Positions 2,755 to 32,105 of a stretch of DNA of 64,000 bases are shown here, piece after piece (position 1 is the stretch's first letter; every line of letters starts with the position of its first letter). The notes below the pieces were generated by a model. The model was not told the origin of the DNA. It saw only the letters and a list, made by a program, of their open reading frames with translations, and searched no databases. The position numbers and the translations under genes were made by a program. The stretch is taken from the sequence record OL770107; one strand, given 5' to 3'. The DNA comes from Escherichia phage CLB_P2.

Positions 2755-2783
2755 AGACCTATCAACTACATGAGGAAATAAAA

Positions 2784-3152
2784 ATGGAAACTGGTAAATT
2801 TTATGTATTAGACCCTGCTGCCAAAAAACAATTCATCGCTGGTAGTCCTGATAACAATTCGCGTATGGTTAAGATTATGGAACAACATGGCAGTTCCTTT
2901 AAAGTCCTGGGCATGTGTTATATCGACGGTGATTATTTTGTCGAAAAAGTTGAAATGAAAGATGGTACCATCCTGAAGTCTGTTTATGATAATGCTGACG
3001 AGTATTTTGAACTCGCTGAATGGGAATTCAAACACTTCATAGAAGTTGATGGTGATGCTCCTGCTGTTGATACCCAAACCATTCATGTGCAGGTAAATCA
3101 TAAAAATGCGGCAGAAGTTGTTGCCTTGATTAAAGCTACCTTTGGAATTTAA
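2784..3152 (+). CDS. hypothetical early protein (122 aa), paralog of the next ORF
   Basis: ORF with SD GAGGAAA; shares a pattern with 3155..3538 (NNN.MV.I, DGD.FV.K, EYFEL.E.EF, C-terminal L...F). Confidence 0.6.
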   Translation: METGKFYVLDPAAKKQFIAGSPDNNSRMVKIMEQHGSSFKVLGMCYIDGDYFVEKVEMKDGTILKSVYDNADEYFELAEWEFKHFIEVDGDAPAVDTQTIHVQVNHKNAAEVVALIKATFGI

Positions 3153-3154
3153 AA

Positions 3155-3538
3155 ATGAAAATCGGTAAAAAATACGAACTTCGTCCTGAGCGTATCAAAT
3201 CTTTTATCAATATCAGCCCTATCAATAATAATGATATGGTTGATATTATCCAAGAAAACGGTGGATGGTTTGAAGTAAAGGACGTTATGACCTCAGATGG
3301 GGATGAATTTGTAACTAAAATCAAATGTGCTAATGGTGAGGTTTTTAGTTCGGACGGGACACTAGAGGAATATTTTGAATTGCATGAAGATGAGTTCTAT
3401 TGCTTCCGTGAATACGTTGAACAAGATGAAGTTGATGAACCCGTTTCTAAGGCCGGTGTGACCCAAATCCATTGCGTTGTCACTGAACAGAACGTTGACC
3501 AAATCATTGAACTTTTGCAAAAAACTTTTAAGGCCTAA
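3155..3538 (+). CDS. hypothetical early protein (127 aa), paralog of the previous ORF
   Basis: Tightly coupled to the upstream ORF; recognisable shared motifs. Confidence 0.6.
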   Translation: MKIGKKYELRPERIKSFINISPINNNDMVDIIQENGGWFEVKDVMTSDGDEFVTKIKCANGEVFSSDGTLEEYFELHEDEFYCFREYVEQDEVDEPVSKAGVTQIHCVVTEQNVDQIIELLQKTFKA

Positions 3539-3539
3539 T

Positions 3540-3800
3540 ATGACTAAAGATGATTTCCTGGATGCCGTAGAAAAAGCCAGTGAGAAATTTGAAGTGATGG
3601 GTGTACGAGTTCATAAAGACCGAAATTATGGGCTCGATGTCCAAACGTATTCGTTATGGCTTGTAGGTGAACATAGTCTTGTAACCAGCTTAGTTATGGG
3701 TGTTGATGCTCAACCCTTACTGGTTAAATTTAGAAGTATGGAAAAAGCTACCAAAGAAATGATTAAGCTTGGTAAATGGCTTGATAAAATTCAAAAATAA
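3540..3800 (+). CDS. hypothetical protein (86 aa)
   Basis: ATG at 3540 two nt after the upstream stop; the track ORF 3477..3800 begins inside the previous gene. Confidence 0.5.
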
Positions 3801-3802
3801 GT

Positions 3803-3836
3803 GTTTACAAGGTCTGTAGATATGATACTATAGACC
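3803..3836 (+). promoter_or_regulatory. early-type promoter with inverted repeat around the -10
   Basis: GTTTAC 3803-3808, TACTAT 3826-3831; GGTCTGTAG / CTATAGACC inverted repeat flanks the -10. Confidence 0.5.
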
Positions 3837-3859
3837 TATCAACTAATGAGGAAAATAAA

Positions 3860-4087
3860 ATGGCTAAGGTTAATATTGATATCGTTGATTTTGAATACAC
3901 TTACGAAGTTATCCGTAATCGTTATCCTTCTTTGACTATGACTTATATCAAAGACACACAATTCTGTAGTATGCAAATTGAAGTTCAAGGTCCTCTTGAA
4001 GACCTTACCCGCTTTATGGCTGATGAATATTGTGATGGTATGCATGCTGAAGACGCTGAATTTTATATGGGCTTAATTCAAAAATAA
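3860..4087 (+). CDS. hypothetical protein (75 aa)
   Basis: ORF preceded by SD GAGGAAAA and an early-type promoter. Confidence 0.55.
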
Positions 4088-4089
4088 GT

Positions 4090-4125
4090 GTTTACCTAAG
4101 GCTATGGTAGTGATACTATAGCCTT
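4090..4125 (+). promoter_or_regulatory. early-type promoter with inverted repeat
   Basis: GTTTAC 4090-4095, TACTAT 4114-4119; AAGGCTAT / ATAGCCTT inverted repeat. Confidence 0.5.
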
Positions 4126-4145
4126 ATCAACTTGAGGAGAATAAA

Positions 4146-4385
4146 ATGAAATTACAACGCGAATCAATCAAAGATTCTGAAGTTAAAGGCAAATGGTACT
4201 TCACAATCCAAGGTAACAATCCGGAAGCTCTGGAAAAAGCCGAACAAGCTTTGTGTGAAATGGGTTGGAAAGATGAGTGTGATGGGTGTCCTCTTTATGA
4301 AGATGGTAGCTCATCTGGTTTCTGGATTCACCATTCTGATGTTGACCAATTTAAAGCCGACTGGAAAGTCGCTAAGAAAGCGTGA
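4146..4385 (+). CDS. hypothetical protein (79 aa), Cys-containing
   Basis: ORF with SD GAGGAGAA upstream. Confidence 0.55.
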   Translation: MKLQRESIKDSEVKGKWYFTIQGNNPEALEKAEQALCEMGWKDECDGCPLYEDGSSSGFWIHHSDVDQFKADWKVAKKA

Positions 4386-4395
4386 GGAAAATATA

Positions 4396-4725
4396 ATGCT
4401 TACTGAATACACTTGCTTTGCTAAAGATGATGCACATCCTGAACTGATTCTTGAAGTTAAGGTTAATACACTTGAACAAAAATTTGATTGGAGCCTTTAC
4501 ATCTATCCTAAAAATAATATTGATGGTCCACAGAAATATACGCTTAACGACAAGTGCATTAGCGGTATCATTGGATACGGGTCTAGCGAAAGCAAATATT
4601 CATTAGAAGATATTCGCCAATCACGTTGTGCCGTCGCTTATTTTGATACTAGTACCATTAAATATCTTTACAAATTGGTTCTTGATATTCGCAAAGATTT
4701 TACCGCAATTAAAAAATGCAGTTAA
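4396..4725 (+). CDS. hypothetical protein (109 aa)
   Basis: ATG at 4396 preceded by GAGGA; the track ORF 4255..4725 begins inside the upstream gene. Confidence 0.5.
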   Translation: MLTEYTCFAKDDAHPELILEVKVNTLEQKFDWSLYIYPKNNIDGPQKYTLNDKCISGIIGYGSSESKYSLEDIRQSRCAVAYFDTSTIKYLYKLVLDIRKDFTAIKKCS

Positions 4726-5506
<781 letters not shown>

Positions 5507-5519
<13 letters not shown>

Positions 5520-6379
5520 TGAAACAATACCAATTTTTAATTAAAGATATCCTGGAAAATGGCTACGAAACCGACGACCGTACCGGCACCGGTACAATTG
5601 CACTGTTCGGTACTAAATTACGTTTTGATTTAACTAAAGGCTTTCCTGCAGTAACAACTAAAAAATTAGCATGGAAAGCCTGTATTGCTGAGCTCCTTTG
5701 GTTCCTTTCGGGTTCAACTAACGTTAATGACCTTCGTTTCCGTACTCACGGTTCACTAATTGGCGGTAAAACTATTTGGGACGAGAACTACGAAAATCAG
5801 GCCAAAGACCTAGGTTATCATAGTGGTGAACTTGGTCCGGTATACGGGAAACAATGGCGAGATTTTGGTGGTGTCGACCAGGTTGTAGAAATCATCAACC
5901 GCATTAAAAAGATGCCTAATGACCGACGTCAAATCGTATCTGCATGGAACCCGGCTGAAATCAACCAGATGGCTCTTCCACCGTGCCATTGTTTTTACCA
6001 GTTCAACGTTCGTAATGGACATCTTGACCTCCAGTGGTACCAACGTTCTGTTGACGTGTTCTTAGGATTGCCATTTAATATTGCCTCTTACGCCGCTCTT
6101 GTGCATATTGTAGCTAAGATGTGTAATCTTATTCCGGGCGATTTAGTGTTCTCAGGCGGCAATACACACATCTATTCTAACCACGTTGAACAATGCCAAG
6201 AAGTTCTTCGTCGTGAGCCTAAAGAGCTTTGTGAACTGGAAATTAATTGGCCTGAAGGATTCTCTGATTGGAGCACGACATTACAGCTTCATTGGGTAAC
6301 AGAGCATATGGTCCATGAAGATTTTAAACTCATTGGTTACGAATCACACCCTACCATTAAGGCTAAAATGGCTGTATGA
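5507..6379 (+). CDS. td: thymidylate synthase (290 aa), uninterrupted
   Basis: Thymidylate synthase motifs (DRTGTGT, LPPCH, FYQF, DLGPVYG); a single continuous ORF. Confidence 0.93.
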
Positions 6380-6440
6380 AAATTCAAATTGCTGGTACCT
6401 TATTTTTGGTTATTATGATTGGGCTGAATTTGGTGCTATA

Positions 6441-6734
6441 ATGAGAGTCTGTAGAGTTGTTAACAAGTATAAAGAAGATTTTGATGTCAATATCCAACGC
6501 GGAACCATGTGGGGTAATCCATTTAAAGATGGGACCCGTGAGGAAAACATCAAGAACTTTAAAGAATACTTTATTGCTAAAATAAAATCGGGTGAAATTA
6601 AAAGAGAACATCTTGAAACCCTTAGAGGTATGCGTATAGCGTGTACCTGTAAACCTAAGGACTGTCATGGGGATGTGATAGCCCTGGTTGTTAACAAACT
6701 TTTCAAAGACACGTTCTCATTAGAAGACCTATAA
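6441..6734 (+). CDS. hypothetical Cys/His-motif protein (DUF4326-like), start uncertain
   Basis: Motif GNPF...ACTCKPKDCHGD resembles a small conserved phage domain; first ATG after the td stop is at 6441 but lacks a clear SD. Confidence 0.45.
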   Translation: MRVCRVVNKYKEDFDVNIQRGTMWGNPFKDGTREENIKNFKEYFIAKIKSGEIKREHLETLRGMRIACTCKPKDCHGDVIALVVNKLFKDTFSLEDL

Positions 6735-6743
6735 ATATCAGTC

Positions 6744-6770
6744 CATGCTTAACAGGTTCTATGATAGAAT
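6744..6770 (+). promoter_or_regulatory. candidate middle (MotA-box) promoter for nrdA
   Basis: TGCTTAA at 6746-6752 resembles the MotA box; TAGAAT -10-like element 12 nt downstream; lies in an inverted repeat AGGTTCTAT / ATAGAACCT. Confidence 0.35.
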
Positions 6771-6800
6771 AATTATAGAACCTAACATATTGAGGAAATT

Positions 6801-9056
6801 ATGCAAGTACAAAAAAGTAGCGGTGTATCCCAAGATTTTGACGCACAAAAAATTATTAAAGTTCTGACTTGGGGCTGTGAAGGAACCCAAATCGACCCCT
6901 ATGAATTATACGAAGAAATCAAATCCCATCTTCGTGATGGTATGACCACCAAAGATATCCAGAATCTGACTGTTAAGGTAGCAGCCAACCTTATCTCGGT
7001 TGAAGAACCCGATTACCAATATGTTGCTGCAAAGCAACTGATGTTTGCACTGCGTAAAGAAGTTTATGGGCAGTTCGAACCGCGTAGTTTTATAGACCAT
7101 ATTTCCTATTGTGTTAACGAAGGTAAATATGACCCTGAATTGCTGTCTCGATATTCTGCAGAAGAAATTACTTTCTTAGAATCTCATATCAAGCATGAAC
7201 GCGATTTCGAATTAACCTATGCTGGTGCAATGCAGCTGAAAGAGAAATATCTGGTTAAAGATAAAACAACCGGTAAAATCTACGAAACCCCTCAGTTCGC
7301 TATTATGTGTATTGGTATGGCCTTACACCAAGACGAGCCAGGTAACCGTTTAGCACATATTATTCGTTTTTATGACGCTGTAAGTACTCGTCAGGTTTCG
7401 TTGCCTACTCCTATTATGGCAGGAGCACGTACTCCAACCCGTCAATTTAGTTCTTGTGTGGTTATTGAAGCAGGCGACTCGCTGAAATCTATTAACAAAA
7501 CCGCTAACTCAATAATTGAATACATTTCTAAACGTGCAGGTATTGGTATCAACGTTGGTATGATTCGTGCTGAAGGTTCTCGTATTGGCATGGGTGAAGT
7601 CAAGCATACCGGTGTTATTCCATTCTGGAAACATTTCCAGACTGCTGTTAAATCATGTTCACAAGGTGGAATCCGTGGCGGCGCTGCTACTGCTTATTAT
7701 CCTATTTGGCATTTGGAAGTTGAAAATCTGCTCGTTCTGAAAAACAACAAAGGTGTCGATGAGAACCGTATTCGACATATGGACTACGGAATCCAGTTGA
7801 ACGACCTTATGATGGAACGTTTCGGTAAAAATGATTACATCACGTTGTTCAGTCCTCATGAAATGGGCGGTGAGCTTTATTATTCTTATTTTGAAGACCA
7901 AGAACGTTTCCGTGAATTGTATGAAGCGGCTGAAAAAGACCCTAGCATTCGCAAGAAACGTATTAAAGCACGCGACCTCTTTGAATTGTTCATGACCGAA
8001 CGTTCAGGCACTGCACGAATTTATCCTCAGTTTGTTGATAACACTAACAACTTCACACCATTTATTCGTGAAAAGGCTCCTATTCGCCAGAGTAACTTGT
8101 GTTGTGAAATTGCTATCCCGACCACCGATGTGAATAGTCCGGACGCTGAAATCGGGTTGTGTACGCTGTCTGCATTCGTGTTGGATAACTTTGATTGGCA
8201 AGACCAAGACAAAATCAACGAACTTGCTGAAGTACAGGTACGTGCACTTGATAACTTGTTAGATTATCAAAGCTATCCTGTTCCTGAAGCTTTGAAGGCT
8301 AAGAAACGTCGTAACCTGGGTGTAGGTGTTACGAACTACGCCGCATGGTTAGCAAGCAACTTTGCTTCTTATGAAGATGCAAACGATTTAACTCACGAAT
8401 TGTTTGAGAGATTACAGTATGGACTTATCCGAGCATCAATCAAGTTGGCCGAAGAAAAAGGGCCTTGCGAGTATTATTCAGACACTAAATGGTCTCGAGG
8501 CGAGCTTCCTATCGACTGGTACAATAAAAAGATTGACCAAATCGCAGCCCCAAACTATGTTTGTGACTGGTCGTCGTTGCGGGAAGACTTGGCTAAACAT
8601 GGCATCCGTAATAGCACATTATCAGCACTTATGCCATGCGAGTCAAGCAGCCAAGTTTCCAACTCTACAAACGGTATCGAACCTCCGCGTGGTCCGGTAA
8701 GTATTAAAGAATCTAAAGAAGGTAACTTCCGTCAGGTAGTTCCTAATGTAGAACATAACCAAGGCCTCTATGATTACGCTTGGAGCCTCGCTAAGAAAGG
8801 TAATAAACCTTATCTTACCCAAGTAGCAATTATGTTGAAATGGGTTTGCCAATCTGCATCAGCGAATACGTATTACGACCCTCAGAACTATGAGAAAGGA
8901 AAAGTTCCTATGTCAGTAATGCTTGATGACCTGTTATATTTCTGGTACTTTGGTGGTAAGAACCTTTATTATCATAATACCCGTGATGGCTCTGGTACTG
9001 ACGATTACGAAATCGAAACTCCTAAAGCCGATGATTGCGCAGCTTGTAAGCTTTAA
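6801..9056 (+). CDS. nrdA: ribonucleotide reductase large subunit (751 aa)
   Basis: Class Ia RNR alpha features (N-terminal ATP-cone region, catalytic CE...NLC and C-terminal Cys pair), length and position. Confidence 0.95.
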   Translation: MQVQKSSGVSQDFDAQKIIKVLTWGCEGTQIDPYELYEEIKSHLRDGMTTKDIQNLTVKVAANLISVEEPDYQYVAAKQLMFALRKEVYGQFEPRSFIDHISYCVNEGKYDPELLSRYSAEEITFLESHIKHERDFELTYAGAMQLKEKYLVKDKTTGKIYETPQFAIMCIGMALHQDEPGNRLAHIIRFYDAVSTRQVSLPTPIMAGARTPTRQFSSCVVIEAGDSLKSINKTANSIIEYISKRAGIGINVGMIRAEGSRIGMGEVKHTGVIPFWKHFQTAVKSCSQGGIRGGAATAYYPIWHLEVENLLVLKNNKGVDENRIRHMDYGIQLNDLMMERFGKNDYITLFSPHEMGGELYYSYFEDQERFRELYEAAEKDPSIRKKRIKARDLFELFMTERSGTARIYPQFVDNTNNFTPFIREKAPIRQSNLCCEIAIPTTDVNSPDAEIGLCTLSAFVLDNFDWQDQDKINELAEVQVRALDNLLDYQSYPVPEALKAKKRRNLGVGVTNYAAWLASNFASYEDANDLTHELFERLQYGLIRASIKLAEEKGPCEYYSDTKWSRGELPIDWYNKKIDQIAAPNYVCDWSSLREDLAKHGIRNSTLSALMPCESSSQVSNSTNGIEPPRGPVSIKESKEGNFRQVVPNVEHNQGLYDYAWSLAKKGNKPYLTQVAIMLKWVCQSASANTYYDPQNYEKGKVPMSVMLDDLLYFWYFGGKNLYYHNTRDGSGTDDYEIETPKADDCAACKL

Positions 9057-9109
9057 TAAAATCTGATTATAATTGACTCATGGATGAGTCACTAACAAAT
9101 GAGAATAAC

Positions 9110-10249
9110 ATGTCTACAGTTTTTAATACTACCCCGGTTGATGTTTTAGTCGAACCGATGTTCTTTGGTTCAGGATTGGGTATTGCTCGTTACGATATCC
9201 AACGTCATAAAGTATTCGAAGAGCTTTGTGAAAAGCAGTTGAGTTTCTTCTGGCGTCCAGAGGAAGTTAACTTGATGATGGATGCTGCCCAGTTTAATAA
9301 GCTTCCTCAATTCCAACAAAATATTTTTACCAATAACCTGAAGTATCAATCACTTCTGGATAGTATCCAGGGACGTGCTCCTTCTGCTGCGCTCCAAGCA
9401 TTGATTTCAGACCCTAGCCTTGATACATGGGTGGCTACATGGACCTTTAGTGAAACCATTCACTCTCGTTCGTATACCCATATCATGCGTAACCTCTATA
9501 CAGACCCATCTAAGGTATTTGACGAAATTCTATTAGATGAAGCTATCATGAAACGTGCTGAATCTATTGGTCGTTATTATGATGATGTTATTGAGAAAAC
9601 TCGTAAATACCAAAATGCTTTAGAAGAATACCATGAGTTCAGTGAAGGTGTTAAAACCGCTAAATACGAACTAATGCGTTCTCTTTACCTCTGCCTGCAT
9701 GTAATAAACGCATTGGAAGCTATTCGTTTTTATGTATCTTTCGCATGTACCTTTAACTTCCATAAGAATATGGAAATCATGGAAGGTAATGCTAAGATTA
9801 TGAAGTTCATTGCACGTGATGAACAGCTTCACCTTAAAGGCACCCAGTACATTATCCGTCAACTCCAGCTTGGTACAGATGGTGATGAATGGGTTAAAAT
9901 TGCTCAAGAGTGTGAACAAGAAGCAGTTGATATTTTCATGGAAGTTAACCGACAAGAAAAAGAGTGGGCCGCTCACCTGTTCAAAGATGGTACTTGCCCT
10001 GGATTAAATACTCAGAACATGGGTGCTTTTGTCGATTACCTGACAGTTTCTCGTATGAAGCAATGTGGCTTACCATGTCCTATTACTGATGCTCCTACTC
10101 GCCATCCTTATCCTTGGATTCGTGAATACCTGAACTCTGATGCTGTACAGGCTGCTCCTCAGGAAGTGGAAATCAGTTCTTACCTTGTAGCACAAATTGA
10201 TAATGATGTCGATGAAAAAGTAATGGCATCATACAAGAAATATTTTTAA
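9110..10249 (+). CDS. nrdB: ribonucleotide reductase small subunit (about 379 aa), uninterrupted
   Basis: MSTVFN...EPMFFG...RYD aligns residue-for-residue with the E. coli NrdB N-terminus; start taken at that ATG (9110). An in-frame upstream ATG at 9080 lies inside a hairpin. Confidence 0.92.
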   Translation: MSTVFNTTPVDVLVEPMFFGSGLGIARYDIQRHKVFEELCEKQLSFFWRPEEVNLMMDAAQFNKLPQFQQNIFTNNLKYQSLLDSIQGRAPSAALQALISDPSLDTWVATWTFSETIHSRSYTHIMRNLYTDPSKVFDEILLDEAIMKRAESIGRYYDDVIEKTRKYQNALEEYHEFSEGVKTAKYELMRSLYLCLHVINALEAIRFYVSFACTFNFHKNMEIMEGNAKIMKFIARDEQLHLKGTQYIIRQLQLGTDGDEWVKIAQECEQEAVDIFMEVNRQEKEWAAHLFKDGTCPGLNTQNMGAFVDYLTVSRMKQCGLPCPITDAPTRHPYPWIREYLNSDAVQAAPQEVEISSYLVAQIDNDVDEKVMASYKKYF

Positions 10250-23524: not shown

Positions 23525-23698
23525 ATGAAAGCTTATTTAGAAACAATTGTAATATCGCATACTACGGCGGCCCCAGCCGTTTCTCAAACCATTTTAGAAT
23601 TCACAGATGAAGCCGCATATAATAAATTTATTGAAGTCTTTGATGGCTATGAAAAAGGCCCGACATTCGAAGTATATCGTACGTTGCTACCACTTTAA
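23525..23698 (+). CDS. hypothetical protein (57 aa)
   Basis: ATG one nt after the ligase stop; followed by a terminator. Confidence 0.4.
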   Translation: MKAYLETIVISHTTAAPAVSQTILEFTDEAAYNKFIEVFDGYEKGPTFEVYRTLLPL

Positions 23699-23716
23699 GG
23701 CCTTCGGGCCTTTTAT
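23698..23716 (+). terminator. rho-independent terminator
   Basis: AGGCC-TTCG-GGCCT hairpin followed by TTTTAT. Confidence 0.6.
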
Positions 23717-23748
23717 GGCATAAATACGGTTATTAAAGAGGAATTATT

Positions 23749-25809
23749 ATGACCGAACAATTGAATGAGGTGTTTGAGTCCGAAGGCACCCTGCCTACTG
23801 TAAACTTAAACCCAAAACTTAAAGTACCCCAGATTTGGAAGATTGGCGATGCTGAATCCCAATTGGTTGCTCGTATGGTATCTTATGCCTCTGAAGGCGA
23901 TGCTATTAAACAGGTTAAATTAGGTGATAAATACGCCCACGTTATCCTTATGAGCCTTTCAGCTAAAGGTTCTCCAGCCGAACTTAAAGGCGGCCTAGGC
24001 CCTACTCCTATTGATGCTATCAATACCATTTTCGACGTAGTATTCGAACAAGTTAAAAAGCTTCGTATGGATGCAGTGATGTTCCGTTTTCCAACCAAGA
24101 AAATGAAAGGACAAGGCCCTATTGTCCAACGGATTATCCAACGTTTGGTAGCACAGAAAACCGGTGGACGTTTTAAAGTAGTTCCTGCTATGTACCAATT
24201 TACCGGTAAACATACTTATATCCTAGTAGTTCGTAAACAAGCTGATATCGAAGATATCAAAGGTATGCCAGGAATTAATTCCGAATTATACACTAAGGTA
24301 GATTCTGATGTCGGTGAAGTTTATATTTCTAAAAAAGAAGGCGTACAGGTTACTAAAGAAACTGCTATTGCCGGCAGTATTGCCAAAGTTGAAGAACGTC
24401 GCACTGATAAAATGGTTATAACCAAGACTAAGATTTCTCGTCGCGCTATTGCAGCAAGCCAGTCTTTAGAATCCTATCGTAATGAAAGTGAACTGTTTAA
24501 GAAATATGAAGCCACTGCCGCTGATTTTAATAAACCGGCAACAGCTCCATTAATCCCTGAGGCCCAGGAAATGGTCACCAATAACAATTCTCCTGCGGCT
24601 AAAAATAAAGTTGCTAATATAGTAGCTGAAGGCACTGCTGAAGAGTTGCATTACGATTATAAAATGTTTCCTCTTCACGGTATAGGTGAAATCCAAGAGA
24701 AAATTAAAGAGAAAATCCTTACAGCCATCAAAAACGAACCTTTGACATCTGTTAAAGCTCTAGAAAAATATGCCTCTGTTATTAATACAGTTTTTGAAGA
24801 ATATAAAGGCGAATGGCTGGCTATACATAACAAAACTCGTAAAGGTCAACCTGACGACGTCTGGAATGAATTAACCGAGTCCAAGTGGAAAGCCGCTAAG
24901 ACCAAGTTCATTAAAAAACGTGTTTATAGTTTTGCTGGTGTAGGTGGCGGTATTATGGTTGATATTACTTTAGGTCATAGTGCAGATAAATACACCCCTT
25001 CTCAAAAACGTGGTATTCGTGAATATTGTGGCTCCGGATATGGCGATATCAATAACCTTCTTTTAGGACGATATAATCCTCAGAACTATGAAGTTATGAG
25101 CGAAAAAGATATCGAATCTGCAGTTAATAATTTGGATTCTGCTTTTGAAAACGGTGATAGATTACCTGAAGGCATCACAGTTTATCGTGCACAGAGTATG
25201 ACGTGGGCCATATATAATGCTTTAGTCAAAAATAAAGTATTCTATTTTAGAAACTTTGTATCAACTTCACTGACCCCTATTATTTTCGGTCGTTTTGGTG
25301 TTACTCATGCCGGTGTAGGTCTTTTAGAGCCTGAAGTTAGAGCCGAACTTACTGTAGATAAAAATGATGAAGGTTATACTAAGGTCCAAGGTTCCGGCGA
25401 CAAATTGGTTAAAGTTGGTTGGGCCATTGACGGTGCTTCTAAAGTTAACGTGGTATTCCCAGGACAACTTGGTATTGCTACTGAAGCTGAAATCATTCTT
25501 CCGCGCGGACTAATGGTAAAAATTAATAAGATAACAGATGCATCTAATAATGATGGTATAATATCCAACAATACAAAACTCATTCAAGCTGAAGTTATGA
25601 CATCAGATGAGCTTCAAGAATCTGTAGTGTATGATGGTGACGTACTAATGGAAACCGGTGAATTGGTTGTATACCAAGATGACTTCGATACTTCCGAAAG
25701 CCCTGTATCTTTTGATTCATTTGTTAAATCTACACGGTTTGACGTACTGCCTCTTTTGGCTTCATGCATAGACCTCTATGACATACCAGAAAAATTCATC
25801 CAAGGGTAA
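23749..25809 (+). CDS. alt: Alt-like ADP-ribosyltransferase, copy 1 (686 aa)
   Basis: R-S-E ADP-ribosyltransferase signature (YRAQ, FVSTSL, EAEIILPRG); size near T4 Alt; position between ligase and gene 54. Confidence 0.85.
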   Translation: MTEQLNEVFESEGTLPTVNLNPKLKVPQIWKIGDAESQLVARMVSYASEGDAIKQVKLGDKYAHVILMSLSAKGSPAELKGGLGPTPIDAINTIFDVVFEQVKKLRMDAVMFRFPTKKMKGQGPIVQRIIQRLVAQKTGGRFKVVPAMYQFTGKHTYILVVRKQADIEDIKGMPGINSELYTKVDSDVGEVYISKKEGVQVTKETAIAGSIAKVEERRTDKMVITKTKISRRAIAASQSLESYRNESELFKKYEATAADFNKPATAPLIPEAQEMVTNNNSPAAKNKVANIVAEGTAEELHYDYKMFPLHGIGEIQEKIKEKILTAIKNEPLTSVKALEKYASVINTVFEEYKGEWLAIHNKTRKGQPDDVWNELTESKWKAAKTKFIKKRVYSFAGVGGGIMVDITLGHSADKYTPSQKRGIREYCGSGYGDINNLLLGRYNPQNYEVMSEKDIESAVNNLDSAFENGDRLPEGITVYRAQSMTWAIYNALVKNKVFYFRNFVSTSLTPIIFGRFGVTHAGVGLLEPEVRAELTVDKNDEGYTKVQGSGDKLVKVGWAIDGASKVNVVFPGQLGIATEAEIILPRGLMVKINKITDASNNDGIISNNTKLIQAEVMTSDELQESVVYDGDVLMETGELVVYQDDFDTSESPVSFDSFVKSTRFDVLPLLASCIDLYDIPEKFIQG

Positions 25810-25812
25810 ATA

Positions 25813-27936
25813 ATGGAAAATTTAAACGAAGTTTTTGATAGTGATTCCGCTAAAAACTATCCAGTAACAAATCTTAAGCCAGGCTCAGGTATCCCACAGA
25901 TTTTCTCTATCCAAGCACCAGGTAATGATAACCTGGTTGCTCGTATGGTATCTTATGCGTCTCAAGGAGACGCTATTAAAATGGTTAAGCCTGGCGACAA
26001 ATATGTCCACGTTATTCTAATGAGTTTGTCAAGCAAGGGTGCTCCGGCTGAACTCAAAGGTGGGCTTGGTTCCGACCCGCTTGGTGCATTGAATACTATT
26101 TTCGATACGATATATGAACAAGTAAACAAACTTAAAATGGATGCAGTTTTGTTCCGTTTCCCTACCAAGAAAATGAAAGGTAAGGGTCCTACTGTTCAGC
26201 GGGTATTAGCTCGTTTGGTGATGGCACGTACCGGTGGTAAGTTTAAAGTTGTTGATAACATGTTCCAATTCAGTGGAAAACATACCTATGTTCTTTTAGT
26301 ACGTCGCGGCACTAATATCGAAGATATCAAGGGTATGCCTGAAATTGATGCTGACCTTTATACCAAGGTTGAGTCTAAAGTTGGTGAAGTTTATGTTTCT
26401 AAGAAAACTGGCCGGGCCGTAAGTAAGGTCGAAGCCGTGGCGGCATCTATTGCACAGGTTGAAGAGAAACGTACCGATAAGGCTGTTATCTCTCGTACTA
26501 AGATTTCTCGTCGTATGGCTGCAGCAGCACAGTATTCTACTGCCGAACCTGAAACTTTATCCCCTAAAGAATTGCAGGTTTATAATGAGTTTGAAGCTTC
26601 TGTACCTGTTCATTCGGCTGAAGGTCCTGAGAACGAAGGTATTGAACAAATTAGCCAGAACTTTAAAAAAGGTGCTATTACTAAAATGCGTCAGGCCTCT
26701 CAGTTTAAATCTAAGAGTGAGGACCTTGCCAACTTTAGATACACCATTGCTCTCACACACGCTTTAATGACTGATAGTAAATTTAAACTAAATTATGCTA
26801 ATAGAGATAAACAAGGGTTTGAAATTTACTCTAATAATATGGCATTTTTTAATACGGAAGTCGATAGACTTTTAAGCGGCCTTTCTCAAATCAATACTAC
26901 CAATAGTCTGGATATTATTAAGAGAATTGTTAATAACCTGAGTGCCCGTTTTCAGGGGTCTCCTTCAGAGAAAGCATCCCGAATTGCTTTCGCTATGGAA
27001 GCCGTTTATAAACTGATTAACGATTCTATTAGCGATGCATATGCTTATTCAGGCGAGCTCATTAAACCTAAGGGCTTGACCAAAGACGAAAGTAATGCCA
27101 TTATTGAATATTGTGCGGCTGAATATGCTCCTATGAACTTATTCCTTTTAGGTAAACCTGAATCCGAAAACAATACAACAGCTATTAAATTGATTAAGGA
27201 TTTAGACTCAGCATTTACCAAGGGTATTAAACTTCCTAAAGGTACTATTTTGTATCGTGGTCAGGATTTACCATACAAAATTCTGCGCCATAATATTGAT
27301 AACAAAACCTTTTACTTTAAGAACTTTGTATCCGCTTCATTAAAGCCTAATATCTTTGGTGAATTTGGTAAAAATTATATGGCCCTCGACAACCAAGCAG
27401 TTTTTGTTGGTGATGAAGGTTCTTTATCCTCCGCCGATGAGTTGTTTAAATTGGCCAGTGGTAGTTCATCTGACGTAGGTGAAGTTGATGATGAAGAGGT
27501 AGAATGGGAAGAAGACGAGTTTGGTAATCCAATTGCACCTGAAGGCCCTGCAGACAGGATTGCTGAAATTGGTATGGTTATTCGAGGTGCTGAAGCAGTT
27601 AAAGTTATCGCTCCTGGTGACCTTACAGAATATGCCGAAGAAGCGGAAATTATCCTTCCGCGCGGATTATTGTTGAAGGTTGATAAAGTAGCAGCTTTTG
27701 CTATGAATGATAGGGTATCTCACAAATACCTTATGGAAGCTACAGTGACATCTCCTTCAGAACTCAGTGAGTCCGTTTACGATGGTGACCATCTGATGGA
27801 AACCGGCGAAGTTAAATTGATGAATGGGTTTAAAGAATTCCTAGTTTCAGAATCTGTTTCAGAAAGTAACGAGGCTATGGAAATCCTTGCTGCATCTTTG
27901 GACATCTCTTCTTTACCAAATAAATTCAAAATGTAG
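25813..27936 (+). CDS. Alt-like ADP-ribosyltransferase, copy 2 (707 aa), tandem paralog
   Basis: Shares the first ~220 aa with copy 1 (LVARMVSYAS.GDAIK, HVILMSLS.KG.PAELKGGLG, FRFPTKKMKG.GP) and the motifs YRGQ, FVSASL, EAEIILPRG; central region divergent with an acidic insert. Confidence 0.85.
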   Translation: MENLNEVFDSDSAKNYPVTNLKPGSGIPQIFSIQAPGNDNLVARMVSYASQGDAIKMVKPGDKYVHVILMSLSSKGAPAELKGGLGSDPLGALNTIFDTIYEQVNKLKMDAVLFRFPTKKMKGKGPTVQRVLARLVMARTGGKFKVVDNMFQFSGKHTYVLLVRRGTNIEDIKGMPEIDADLYTKVESKVGEVYVSKKTGRAVSKVEAVAASIAQVEEKRTDKAVISRTKISRRMAAAAQYSTAEPETLSPKELQVYNEFEASVPVHSAEGPENEGIEQISQNFKKGAITKMRQASQFKSKSEDLANFRYTIALTHALMTDSKFKLNYANRDKQGFEIYSNNMAFFNTEVDRLLSGLSQINTTNSLDIIKRIVNNLSARFQGSPSEKASRIAFAMEAVYKLINDSISDAYAYSGELIKPKGLTKDESNAIIEYCAAEYAPMNLFLLGKPESENNTTAIKLIKDLDSAFTKGIKLPKGTILYRGQDLPYKILRHNIDNKTFYFKNFVSASLKPNIFGEFGKNYMALDNQAVFVGDEGSLSSADELFKLASGSSSDVGEVDDEEVEWEEDEFGNPIAPEGPADRIAEIGMVIRGAEAVKVIAPGDLTEYAEEAEIILPRGLLLKVDKVAAFAMNDRVSHKYLMEATVTSPSELSESVYDGDHLMETGEVKLMNGFKEFLVSESVSESNEAMEILAASLDISSLPNKFKM

Positions 27937-28284: not shown

Positions 28285-28292
28285 ACCCCTAA

Positions 28293-28318
28293 AGGAGAGC
28301 GTAAGCTCTCCTTTTTTG
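28293..28318. terminator. bidirectional terminator between the early block and gene 54
   Basis: GGAGAGC-GTAA-GCTCTCC hairpin with a T-run on the plus side and an A-rich plus-strand flank (T-rich on the minus strand). Confidence 0.6.
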
Positions 28319-30368: not shown

Positions 30369-32105
30369 CTAATTAACTTTAGTAGCTTGACGCATACCAG
30401 GAGCAGGAGTAGAAGACTGTGGTGGTAAATTATAACTGGTCTTACTCGTTTTCTTGATATTCGTTTGCTGATTTATTTGAGTTGGAGCTTGCTGACTATA
30501 TTTAGCATTTTCCTTTGCTCTCATTTGCTCGTCAACCTTTTTAACCTGGGTGTTTTCAGGAGATTCCGCTACAGAAGCAGGTTTAGGCTTTTCAGCTTCG
30601 TTAAATTTCTCTAAAGATTTATTCATCTTATCAAGTAATTGCTGGATATTAAGGTCCTTAGGTGCTCCACCTTTAGCCATAATAGGGTCAGCCAATTGTT
30701 TCTCGATATCCGCTTTAAATGCCTTGGCATTTTCGATATCTTTAGAATCAGGCTTCATTATATTATCGGCGGTTTGAGTTAAACGAATAATATCGGCCTG
30801 TGCTTTATCACGTTTCTTGAAATACTCTAAACGTTCTTCTTCAGGGAGGTCACGGAAGCTTGTGTCAATTCCACCTGCGCGTAATTGGTCAGCTTGTTCT
30901 TTAGTAAGGTTACCGTATTTCTCTGCCTGGTTTATAAGCTCGGGTTTATCCTTATACTTCTTATTCATTTTCTCGGCTGCTTCTAAAGCCTCGGCAGAAC
31001 GTCTATCATGATACTTGGCTACTTTAGTTTGGTCTTCGTCATCTAAAGTGGCTCCGGTATTTTGTTGATATGACATTAAAGCGGATGCCTCTACGTTTTC
31101 AGCCAACTCGCCCATACCTGGTATTTTACTTAAAATGGCAGAAATCAATTTAGAAATACCGAGCATTAACAGTTGTGCCATATTTTTGGTAAGATTAACC
31201 ATACCGCGAATAATAGCTTCTGCCAGACCTAGCCAATTTCTTTCGCTAAACATAGCTTCAGCATTCTTGGCCCAGGTCATTAAGCCTTCAAGTACAGGTC
31301 CCCACTCTTTAAACTTATCGTTAAATTTTTTCCATCCTTCATTAAATTGGTCCATGAAATATTGGAAGTATACACGAATAGCATCTATACCAAATATTAA
31401 AAGGGCTAAACCTGCGGCAAGTTTAGCGGCTTCTGCAGCAGCAGTAATAGTATACTTAAAAAGCATGTCTGAAATTCTATCAGCGACGCCTATAGAAGCT
31501 TTAAATCCTTTTTCGGTTATTTTTGTAAGGGCTTCGATTTTATCAGAAAGAGAAGACTTATCACCTTCTTTACCTTCATCCGAATTTTTAGGAGGCTCTG
31601 GCATAAATTCGGCGTCAGGTTTATTATCTTCAGGCGGAAGAATATCTTCAACAACAGCAGGGACTTTAGGAGTTTCGGCCTTGGGTTCTTCCGGAATAGA
31701 GTCTTCAATAACCTTTAATGAGCTCCCGTCCGGTGGAATAGAAATACCGGAAAATTTAGCCTCCAACATATTAGAAAGCTTATTAATCTTTTCGTTTAAT
31801 GCATCCGAAAGAGCTTTAGACTGTTGGGTTTGTTCTGATATAGCTTCAGCTGTTAATTCTGTTCCAGCGACAACGTCTTGGACGCTTTTATCTACTCTAT
31901 CTACAGAATTAATAATCTGATTGGACTTTGTCTCAACCACTTCAGAGAGCAATTCAGACGCCGCCTGGGAATCAGATAAAACATCTGATATATTTCCTAA
32001 TTCATCGTTCTGAGTTTGGGCTAGCGCCTCAGCACGACGCTGAGGAGCCATTTCTTCAATCAGTTTATTGCGACGAAAACTATTCTGATTAGATTCATTC
32101 TTCAT
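30369..32105 (-). CDS. 29: tail tape-measure protein gp29 (578 aa)
   Basis: Long, largely alpha-helical Ala/Glu/Lys-rich protein between 48 and 28; size near T4 gp29. Confidence 0.85.
   Translation of the reverse strand: MKNESNQNSFRRNKLIEEMAPQRRAEALAQTQNDELGNISDVLSDSQAASELLSEVVETKSNQIINSVDRVDKSVQDVVAGTELTAEAISEQTQQSKALSDALNEKINKLSNMLEAKFSGISIPPDGSSLKVIEDSIPEEPKAETPKVPAVVEDILPPEDNKPDAEFMPEPPKNSDEGKEGDKSSLSDKIEALTKITEKGFKASIGVADRISDMLFKYTITAAAEAAKLAAGLALLIFGIDAIRVYFQYFMDQFNEGWKKFNDKFKEWGPVLEGLMTWAKNAEAMFSERNWLGLAEAIIRGMVNLTKNMAQLLMLGISKLISAILSKIPGMGELAENVEASALMSYQQNTGATLDDEDQTKVAKYHDRRSAEALEAAEKMNKKYKDKPELINQAEKYGNLTKEQADQLRAGGIDTSFRDLPEEERLEYFKKRDKAQADIIRLTQTADNIMKPDSKDIENAKAFKADIEKQLADPIMAKGGAPKDLNIQQLLDKMNKSLEKFNEAEKPKPASVAESPENTQVKKVDEQMRAKENAKYSQQAPTQINQQTNIKKTSKTSYNLPPQSSTPAPGMRQATKVN

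Follow-up and report, generated by a model that had tools for sequence, protein, structure and literature searches.

Two anciently diverged Alt-type ADP-ribosyltransferases, probably with different substrates, encoded in tandem by Escherichia phage CLB_P2

Why should a T-even phage carry two alt genes side by side? In Escherichia phage CLB_P2 (sequence record OL770107), a stretch of 64,000 nucleotides (nt), here called the window, holds two adjacent open reading frames (ORFs) on the plus strand between positions 23749 and 27936 that both resemble alt, the gene for the ADP-ribosyltransferase (ART) that phage T4 injects into its host. An earlier note on this DNA had read them as a tandem duplication with a divergent middle region, pointing to two injected enzymes with different targets. 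Our analysis leads us to regard it as probable that the pair encodes two anciently diverged, capsid-packaged, injected arginine ARTs, likely differing in their substrates. Below, the upstream gene is called copy 1 (A-type) and the downstream gene copy 2 (B-type); the coordinates of all features are collected in Table 1.

Two full-length members of the Alt family

Both ORFs, of 686 and 707 amino acids (aa), were found as described, with a spacer of 3 nt in the ORF listing, and sequence comparison confirmed both as full-length Alt-family ARTs. PHROG 802 ("Alt-like RNA polymerase ADP-ribosyltransferase") matched them end-to-end (residues 1 to 685 of copy 1, E value 6e-258; residues 1 to 707 of copy 2, E value 2e-251); they did not match distinct, already characterized families. 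The Pfam model PF03496 (ADP-ribosyltransferase exoenzyme), with a curated cutoff of 23.4 bits, scored 111 bits in copy 1 (E value 5e-32) and 65 bits in copy 2 (E value 6e-18); NCBIfam gave no model for either. When the copies were compared by BLASTP, residues 3 to 238 of copy 1 aligned with residues 2 to 240 of copy 2 at 65% identity (E value 3e-104) and residues 416 to 683 with residues 423 to 705 at 34% identity (E value 2e-41), with no alignment across the middle ca. 180 aa. The conserved N-terminal region and the divergent middle of the earlier note were thus both recovered, the former being longer (ca. 239 aa) than the ca. 220 aa given there.

The C-terminal R-S-E catalytic signature was likewise present in both proteins, with YRAQ at residues 479 to 482, FVSTSL at 503 to 508, and EAEIILPRG at 579 to 587 in copy 1 and YRGQ at 481 to 484, FVSASL at 505 to 510, and EAEIILPRG at 610 to 618 in copy 2. 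In an alignment of 77 diverse homologues, the Arg was kept in 76 and the first Ser and both Glu residues of E-x-E in all 77, and every one of these residues is found in both copies. By this alignment, the R / S-x-S / E-x-E active site, of the arginine type, is intact in each copy, with no loss of catalytic residues. In R-S-E ARTs, an E-x-E motif is associated with arginine as the acceptor and the Q-x-E of C3 with asparagine; both copies are therefore predicted to be arginine specific, like T4 Alt.

A profile built from 12 Alt proteins matched C3cer, BECa/CPILE-a, Certhrax, Vip2, Vis, CDTa, and iota Ia in the PDB, placing the Alt "YR" on "YRGDD" of C3 and "EAEvILPR" on "QYELLLPR" of C3 and "NEYEV" of BECa. 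Single-sequence searches of the PDB with copy 1 and copy 2 returned no match, and no Alt-family structure by sequence. The likeness to these toxins is confined to the catalytic domain: C3bot, Vis, Certhrax, VIP2, iota Ia, CDTa, and CPILE-a are only 13 to 25% identical to Alt in sequence, have no counterpart of its N-terminal domain, helical middle, or cleavable C-terminal tail, and are delivered by secretion or through a pore, whereas Alt travels in the phage capsid. Closer to hand in T4 are ModA and ModB, which are small (about 200 aa) and produced early. They are paralogous R-S-E ARTs from this phage group that modify host proteins and, unlike Alt, are not packaged or injected (PMC5512222).

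Orthology and age of the pair

To place the two copies, 12 Alt proteins from the window, JS10, JS98, MX01, RB27, and T4 were aligned and identity was scored per domain. Copy 2 proved closer to the alt.-2 product of RB27 (45% identity in the middle, 58% in the ART domain, and 59% in the tail) than to its own neighbor copy 1 (10, 38, and 43%, respectively), and it was 99% identical to AltB of JS10. Its identities to RB27 alt.-2, across genera, lie close to the 58 to 63% found between the window and T4 for the flanking genes (gp30, alt.1, alt.-3, gp54, and gp48). Copy 1 shares with T4 Alt (NP_049811) the four-part architecture, the R-S-ExE residues, both motifs for the prohead protease gp21, and the locus, between gene 30/alt.1 and alt.-3/gene 54. 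The C termini sort by lineage in the same way, with ...KF(I/V)QG in the T4-Alt type (...PEKFIQG in copy 1, ...YKFVQG in T4) and ...KFKM in the second type, including copy 2 and RB27 alt.-2. These comparisons identify copy 1 as orthologous to T4 Alt and copy 2 as orthologous to the second Alt ("alt.-2" or altb). Copy 1 is nevertheless only 46% identical to T4 Alt in the N-terminal domain, below the 58 to 63% of the flanking genes, and in its middle and ART domains, RB27 Alt, at 64 and 82% identity, is nearer than T4 Alt, at 34 and 63%.

The adjacency of the copies across a 3-nt spacer and their 65% N-terminal identity would fit a tandem duplication that arose recently in the CLB_P2 lineage, with the middle then diverging rapidly or being replaced. 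We consider this extremely improbable. At the nucleotide level, the two N-terminal domains have an identity of 0.66 and a longest exact match of 25 nt, and 53% of the codons at conserved residues are identical, within the 43 to 60% seen in the other comparisons; on the same figures, a recent gene conversion of the N-terminal domain was rejected. Moreover, each copy has its own Tequatrovirus orthologue, synonymous sites have diverged almost to saturation between the copies, and the junction between the genes (...CAAGG[G/A] TAA AT[A/C/G] ATG GAA...) is common to the Dhakaviruses JS10, JS98, and MX01, to RB27, and to T4, where it joins alt and alt.-1. The duplication is therefore older than the split between these genera.

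Both copies are maintained genes under purifying selection, as judged from the ratio of nonsynonymous to synonymous substitution rates (dN/dS) within Dhakavirus, which was 0.025 to 0.056 for copy 2 and 0.10 to 0.13 for copy 1 (compared with JS10 and MX01).

Distribution and the remnant in T4

The tandem pair proved not to be unusual. Over 5.5 kb, the region matches Dhakavirus CLBP2 (OZ035781.1) at 100% identity and other Dhakaviruses at 88 to 97%. In JS98, JS10, and IME08, the pair is annotated as alta/altb and has the same neighbors as in the window, namely gene 30 (ligase), alt.1, alt.-3, and the baseplate genes 54, 48, and 29, and five further Dhakaviruses (MX01, QL01, WG01, AnYang, and C6) carry three alt genes. 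RB27, a close relative of T4, has a full-length second Alt labeled alt.-2. A tblastn search with the middle region of copy 2 alone hit 445 phage records, at one place each: ca. 43 Dhakaviruses at 95% identity or more and ca. 402 Tequatrovirus-type records at ca. 44%, the latter including T2, T6, RB3, RB14, RB18, RB27, RB33, AR1, and PST. The N-terminal domain shared by both types was found at 1,823 places in 1,201 records.

T4 was said to have a single alt, which is correct for intact genes only. T4 alt.-1 is 95% identical to residues 1 to 56 of RB27 alt.-2, and T4 alt.-2 is 96% identical to residues 62 to 116 of the same protein. By this comparison, alt.-1 and alt.-2 are the decayed first ca. 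116 codons of the second, B-type gene. The remnant lies at positions 5066 to 5451 of the T4 stretch that we compared (L005). The single intact alt of T4 is thus the exception, a derived loss, and most T-even relatives keep the second Alt.

The tandem pair is ancient, widespread, and previously annotated, and it is not new. The T4 RefSeq record attributes alt.-1 and alt.-2 to an old duplication that took in the first part of alt, and alt paralogues in 44RR, RB49, and T4 were reported in 2006 (Nolan et al., PMC1524935). With the pair annotated in close relatives and the duplication described in these sources, the discovery value is small. What matters more is that a second Alt lineage under strong purifying selection is present in hundreds of T-even phages, T2 and T6 among them. 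Its being missing from the model phage may be why it was never studied, and the textbook picture of a single injected ART, drawn from a phage that lacks the B-type gene, probably understates the set of enzymes that most T-even phages inject.

Processing and delivery

T4 Alt is a component of the prohead core, present in about 40 copies, which is trimmed by gp21 and ejected with the DNA (PMC9958956, PMC9026906). Mass spectrometry placed its cuts at ITE-6, where six residues are removed, and at LTE-619, where the loss of 63 C-terminal residues leaves a protein of 68.2 kDa (PMC5694885), and gp21 prefers I/L-x-E (PMC12991175). The L-N-E near the start of both proteins (residues 5 to 7 of copy 1 and 4 to 6 of copy 2), suggested earlier as a prohead-protease site, aligns with the I-T-E cut site of T4 and fits this preference. 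We found in addition a second motif of the gp21 type toward the C terminus of copies 1 and 2 (LQE-624 and LSE-653, respectively). The Glu of the N-terminal site is kept in 76 of the 77 homologues and that of the C-terminal site in all 77. Cleavage at both sites would give a mature copy 1 of 617 aa (68.3 kDa; predicted isoelectric point [pI], 8.9) and a mature copy 2 of 647 aa (71.2 kDa; predicted pI, 6.1).

By analogy with T4 Alt, each precursor would enter the prohead core, where gp21 would remove 6 to 7 residues from its N terminus (cutting after L-N-E) and 54 to 62 residues from its C terminus (cutting after L-Q-E or L-S-E). In their mature form, of ca. 68 and ca. 71 kDa, the enzymes would then leave the capsid together with the DNA and modify arginines of host proteins by mono-ADP-ribosylation.

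Similar in concept are the MuF-ART fusions and polyvalent proteins, in which a head-associated carrier is fused to an injected effector and combinations of GNAT (GCN5-related N-acetyltransferase) and ART domains have been reported (PMC5512222, PMC9503650). Alt differs from the former in having no MuF domain, and the authors who described polyvalent proteins set Alt outside the genuine ones (PMC5512222).

Do the two enzymes have different substrates?

The copies differ in the helical middle and in the loops around the active site. Both middles were predicted with high confidence to consist of 7 to 8 helices, and an hhalign comparison of A-type and B-type middles detected no homology (probability, 0.5%; E value, 0.11). 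Two modeled all-helical regions of this kind could reflect either extreme divergence or replacement. The acidic insert that had been pointed out in copy 2, DVGEVDDEEVEWEEDEFG, sits at residues 554 to 571, in the loop that runs from the S-x-S strand to the strand preceding E-x-E. This loop is predicted to be disordered in copy 2, with predicted local distance difference test (pLDDT) values of <50 at residues 552 to 566 and 573 to 578. Among the 77 homologues it is hypervariable, with 31 to 74 residues (median, 53), and that of copy 2 is both the longest (74) and the most acidic (net charge, -17). In the alignment, the insert is absent from RB27 alt.-2, which also has S-T-S; between Tequatrovirus "alt.-2" and the Dhakavirus B-type, the acidic insert and S-A-S occur only on the Dhakavirus side. 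The residues leading into E-x-E differ as well (GQLGIATEAE in copy 1 versus GDLTEYAEEAE in copy 2), as does the charge of the mature proteins given above.

The same loop varies among close relatives of copy 1. Compared with AltA of JS10 and MX01 (694 aa), copy 1 differs chiefly in a stretch that is 8 residues shorter and resequenced, at window positions 25300 to 25410 (residues ca. 520 to 552).

In related toxins, such loops, the residues before E-x-E, and helical regions of this kind contact the substrate. As the copies differ in just these regions, different substrate sets are plausible, and we infer from sequence that the two enzymes may act on different sets of host proteins.

Alternatively, both proteins could be packaged and act on the same host targets (e.g., the RNA polymerase alpha subunit), the second copy adding dose or robustness. 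EAEIILPRG is identical in the two, the E-x-E, the N-terminal domain, and the processing motifs are shared, and T4 manages without a second copy. Simple redundancy would not, however, be expected to keep both genes for so long (dN/dS of 0.03 to 0.13; 445 genomes), nor to leave lineages distinct across genera, with middles that cannot be aligned, ART domains only 38% identical, and a different loop and charge. We therefore hold redundancy to be unlikely, and favor two injected enzymes with different substrates.

Several observations weigh against that interpretation. The argument for different substrates is drawn entirely from sequence divergence. Since T4 lost the B-type gene and yet succeeds as a laboratory phage, this gene must be dispensable, at least in laboratory hosts. 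No exact T4 late promoter (TATAAATA) was found upstream of the alt genes, where CATAAATA stands instead. In copy 2, S-T-S is replaced by S-A-S, which occurs in only 3 of the 77 homologues. Searches of the literature on B-type Alt yielded no relevant virion proteomics or biochemistry. The last two points lead to two further alternatives.

One is that copy 2 is catalytically weakened or inactive and is kept for another role, be it that of a decoy or of a structural or internal protein of the head. The rare S-A-S state would agree with this, as would a disordered acidic insert of 27 residues in the catalytic domain and the lower Pfam score (65 versus 111 bits). On the other side stand the catalytic residues kept in both copies, and we judge this alternative very unlikely. 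The other is that copy 2 is made but left unpackaged and acts late inside the infected cell, in the manner of ModA and ModB. The literature searches gave no virion proteomics that would place it in the particle, and copy 2 is acidic (mature pI 6.1, with the strongly negative loop), while copy 1 is basic. Against this, the whole Alt architecture is retained, including the N-terminal domain, both Glu-ending L-x-E motifs (with Glu in 76 to 77 of 77 homologues), and the conserved C-terminal ...KF.. end, and copy 2 is apparently cotranscribed with copy 1, 3 nt downstream and under the same late-type signal. An unpackaged copy 2 is in our view quite unlikely.

The N-terminal domain

The N-terminal domain is the best-conserved part of the protein family-wide (median identity of 65%, versus 38% for the ART domain). 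Its profile, searched against 1.84 billion representative proteins, matched only 70 clusters, in which it was always N terminal and nearly always in the Alt architecture. No model in the local copy of Pfam matched this domain in searches with the full proteins or with 18 N-terminal domains at an E value of ≤10, acetyltransferase models included, and its profile found nothing among PDB sequences at an E value of ≤10. A further Pfam entry, PF26846, which that copy lacks, is precomputed besides PF03496 in all 120 homologues listed.

The predicted fold offers a lead, in that the model looks GNAT-like. In GNAT proteins, the loop that binds the acetyl-CoA pyrophosphate reads Q/R-x-x-G-x-G/A. The corresponding loop before the long helix of the N-terminal domain is only partly motif-like (AELKGGLGP in the window; AKLKGLGP in T4, which fits KxxGxG), its register differs between lineages, and membership in GNAT was not supported at the sequence level.

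Within genomes, the N-terminal domains of Alt pairs are 66 to 78% identical (six phages), versus 42 to 47% between cross-genus orthologues of Dhakavirus and the T4 group. In the domain-wise scoring of the 12 proteins, paralogues of one genome were 66 to 68% identical in this domain. This pattern suggests either old homogenization or coevolution with a lineage-specific partner in the head core.

Four metagenomic proteins of 1142, 541, 485, and 347 aa have the Alt N-terminal domain, with no ART or other recognizable domain downstream of it. They hint that the domain can carry other cargo.

Exchange of modules between phages

Some alt genes appear to be mosaics. RB27 Alt is 99% identical to T4 Alt in the N-terminal domain and 96% in the C-terminal tail, but its middle and ART domains are 32 and 66% identical to those of T4, versus 64 and 82% to those of copy 1, and the latter value is well over the genomic background of 58 to 63%. 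This mosaic, at positions 8004 to 10097 of the RB27 stretch (L004), indicates an exchange of effector modules between genera. In Bp7, the second alt has a middle of the T4-Alt type (63%).

The three-gene arrays of MX01, QL01, WG01, AnYang, and C6 occupy the same locus as the pair in the window. Their first and last genes correspond to copies 1 and 2, and they differ from the window in having an extra gene between them. In MX01 (array at positions 2759 to 9019 of stretch L002; chimeric middle gene at 4847 to 6892), the extra gene encodes 681 aa, with an N-terminal domain 90% identical to the B-type, a tail 67% identical to the A-type, and a middle and ART domain of a third type (16 to 20% and 35 to 41% identity, respectively). 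The junction sequences on its two sides are the same over 42 nt.

These mosaics fit the gain, loss, and exchange of cassettes, with recombination taking place in the conserved segments at head and tail, and module swapping marks the alt locus as a site where injected effectors are diversified. The N-terminal domain and the C-terminal propeptide would serve as homology arms for swaps of the middle-plus-catalytic module. A more far-reaching proposal, which we put forward tentatively and with some doubt, is that B-type Alt is a second capsid-delivered arginine ART with targets of its own, possibly tuned by its acidic disordered loop, that the alt locus is a site for effector cassettes, and that the N-terminal domain may be GNAT-like, with a further function besides packaging. 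Under this proposal, the N-terminal domain and the cleavable C-terminal propeptide would double as packaging handles and recombination arms.

Expression and neighboring genes

A homologue of alt.1 lies directly upstream of the pair, as in JS10, JS98, and T4, and is followed by a hairpin and the box CATAAATA, which was kept in all four Dhakaviruses checked. The same GGCCTTCGGGCC hairpin recurs in T4 and RB27, where the canonical late box TATAAATA comes after it; T4 alt and copy 1 thus have the hairpin in common and differ in the box. By analogy, both genes would be transcribed together late in infection from the late-promoter-like box behind the conserved hairpin, and the ribosome-binding site of copy 2 would lie inside the end of copy 1.

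Table 1. Features of the alt pair and its surroundings in the window
Feature	Position	Strand	Remarks
alt.1 homologue, 57 aa	23525..23698	+	PHROG 1976, E value 1e-25; 60% identical to T4 Alt.1
Hairpin AAGGCC-TTCG-GGCCTT and T-run	23697-23716	+	Direct reading; likely terminator
CATAAATA, late-promoter-like box	23719-23726	+	22 nt before the copy 1 ATG; putative function
alt copy 1 (A-type; T4 Alt orthologue)	23749..25809	+	ATG start; precursor of 686 aa, 76.1 kDa
Copy 1, predicted N-terminal propeptide MTEQLNE	23749..23769	+	Cleavage after E7; aligns with T4 MELITE
Copy 1, conserved N-terminal alpha/beta domain, aa 8-238	23770..24462	+	
Copy 1, variable all-helical middle, aa 239-415	24463..24993	+	Predicted helices 248-408, pLDDT >90
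Copy 1, ART domain, aa 416-624	24994..25620	+	R480, S505-T-S507, E579-A-E581
Copy 1, predicted C-terminal propeptide, 62 aa	25621..25806	+	After LQE-624; aligns with T4 LTE-619
Junction AAGGG-TAA-ATA-ATG	25802..25815	+	Shine-Dalgarno-like sequence of copy 2 within the last codons of copy 1
alt copy 2 (B-type; "alt.-2"/altb orthologue)	25813..27936	+	ATG start; precursor of 707 aa, 77.8 kDa
Copy 2, predicted N-terminal propeptide MENLNE	25813..25830	+	Cleavage after E6; same column as T4 ITE-6
Copy 2, conserved N-terminal alpha/beta domain, aa 7-240	25831..26532	+	
Copy 2, B-type-specific all-helical middle, aa 241-420	26533..27072	+	Predicted helices 251-417
Copy 2, ART domain, aa 421-653	27073..27771	+	R482, S507-A-S509, E610-A-E612
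Copy 2, acidic insert DVGEVDDEEVEWEEDEFG, aa 554-571	27472-27525	+	Of 18 residues, 11 are D/E and none is K/R
Copy 2, predicted C-terminal propeptide, 54 aa	27772..27933	+	After LSE-653; aligns with T4 LTE-619
alt.-3 homologue, 96 aa	27994-28284	+	PHROG 1739, E value 9e-43; 58% identical to T4 Alt.-3
Terminator-like hairpin, 10 pairs and T-run	28291-28314	+	Closes the rightward unit after alt.-3

In the whole window, TATAAATA occurs at 16 sites, versus 7.1 expected, a number reached in none of 100 shuffles. Most of these sites are on the minus strand between 46.9 and 60.1 kb, presumably in the structural-gene cluster. Farther along from the alt pair, on the minus strand at positions 30369 to 32105, the homologue of gp29 (baseplate hub and tail-length determinator) is 34% identical to T4 gp29, while its neighbors, genes 54, 48, and 30, are 61 to 63% identical to those of T4.

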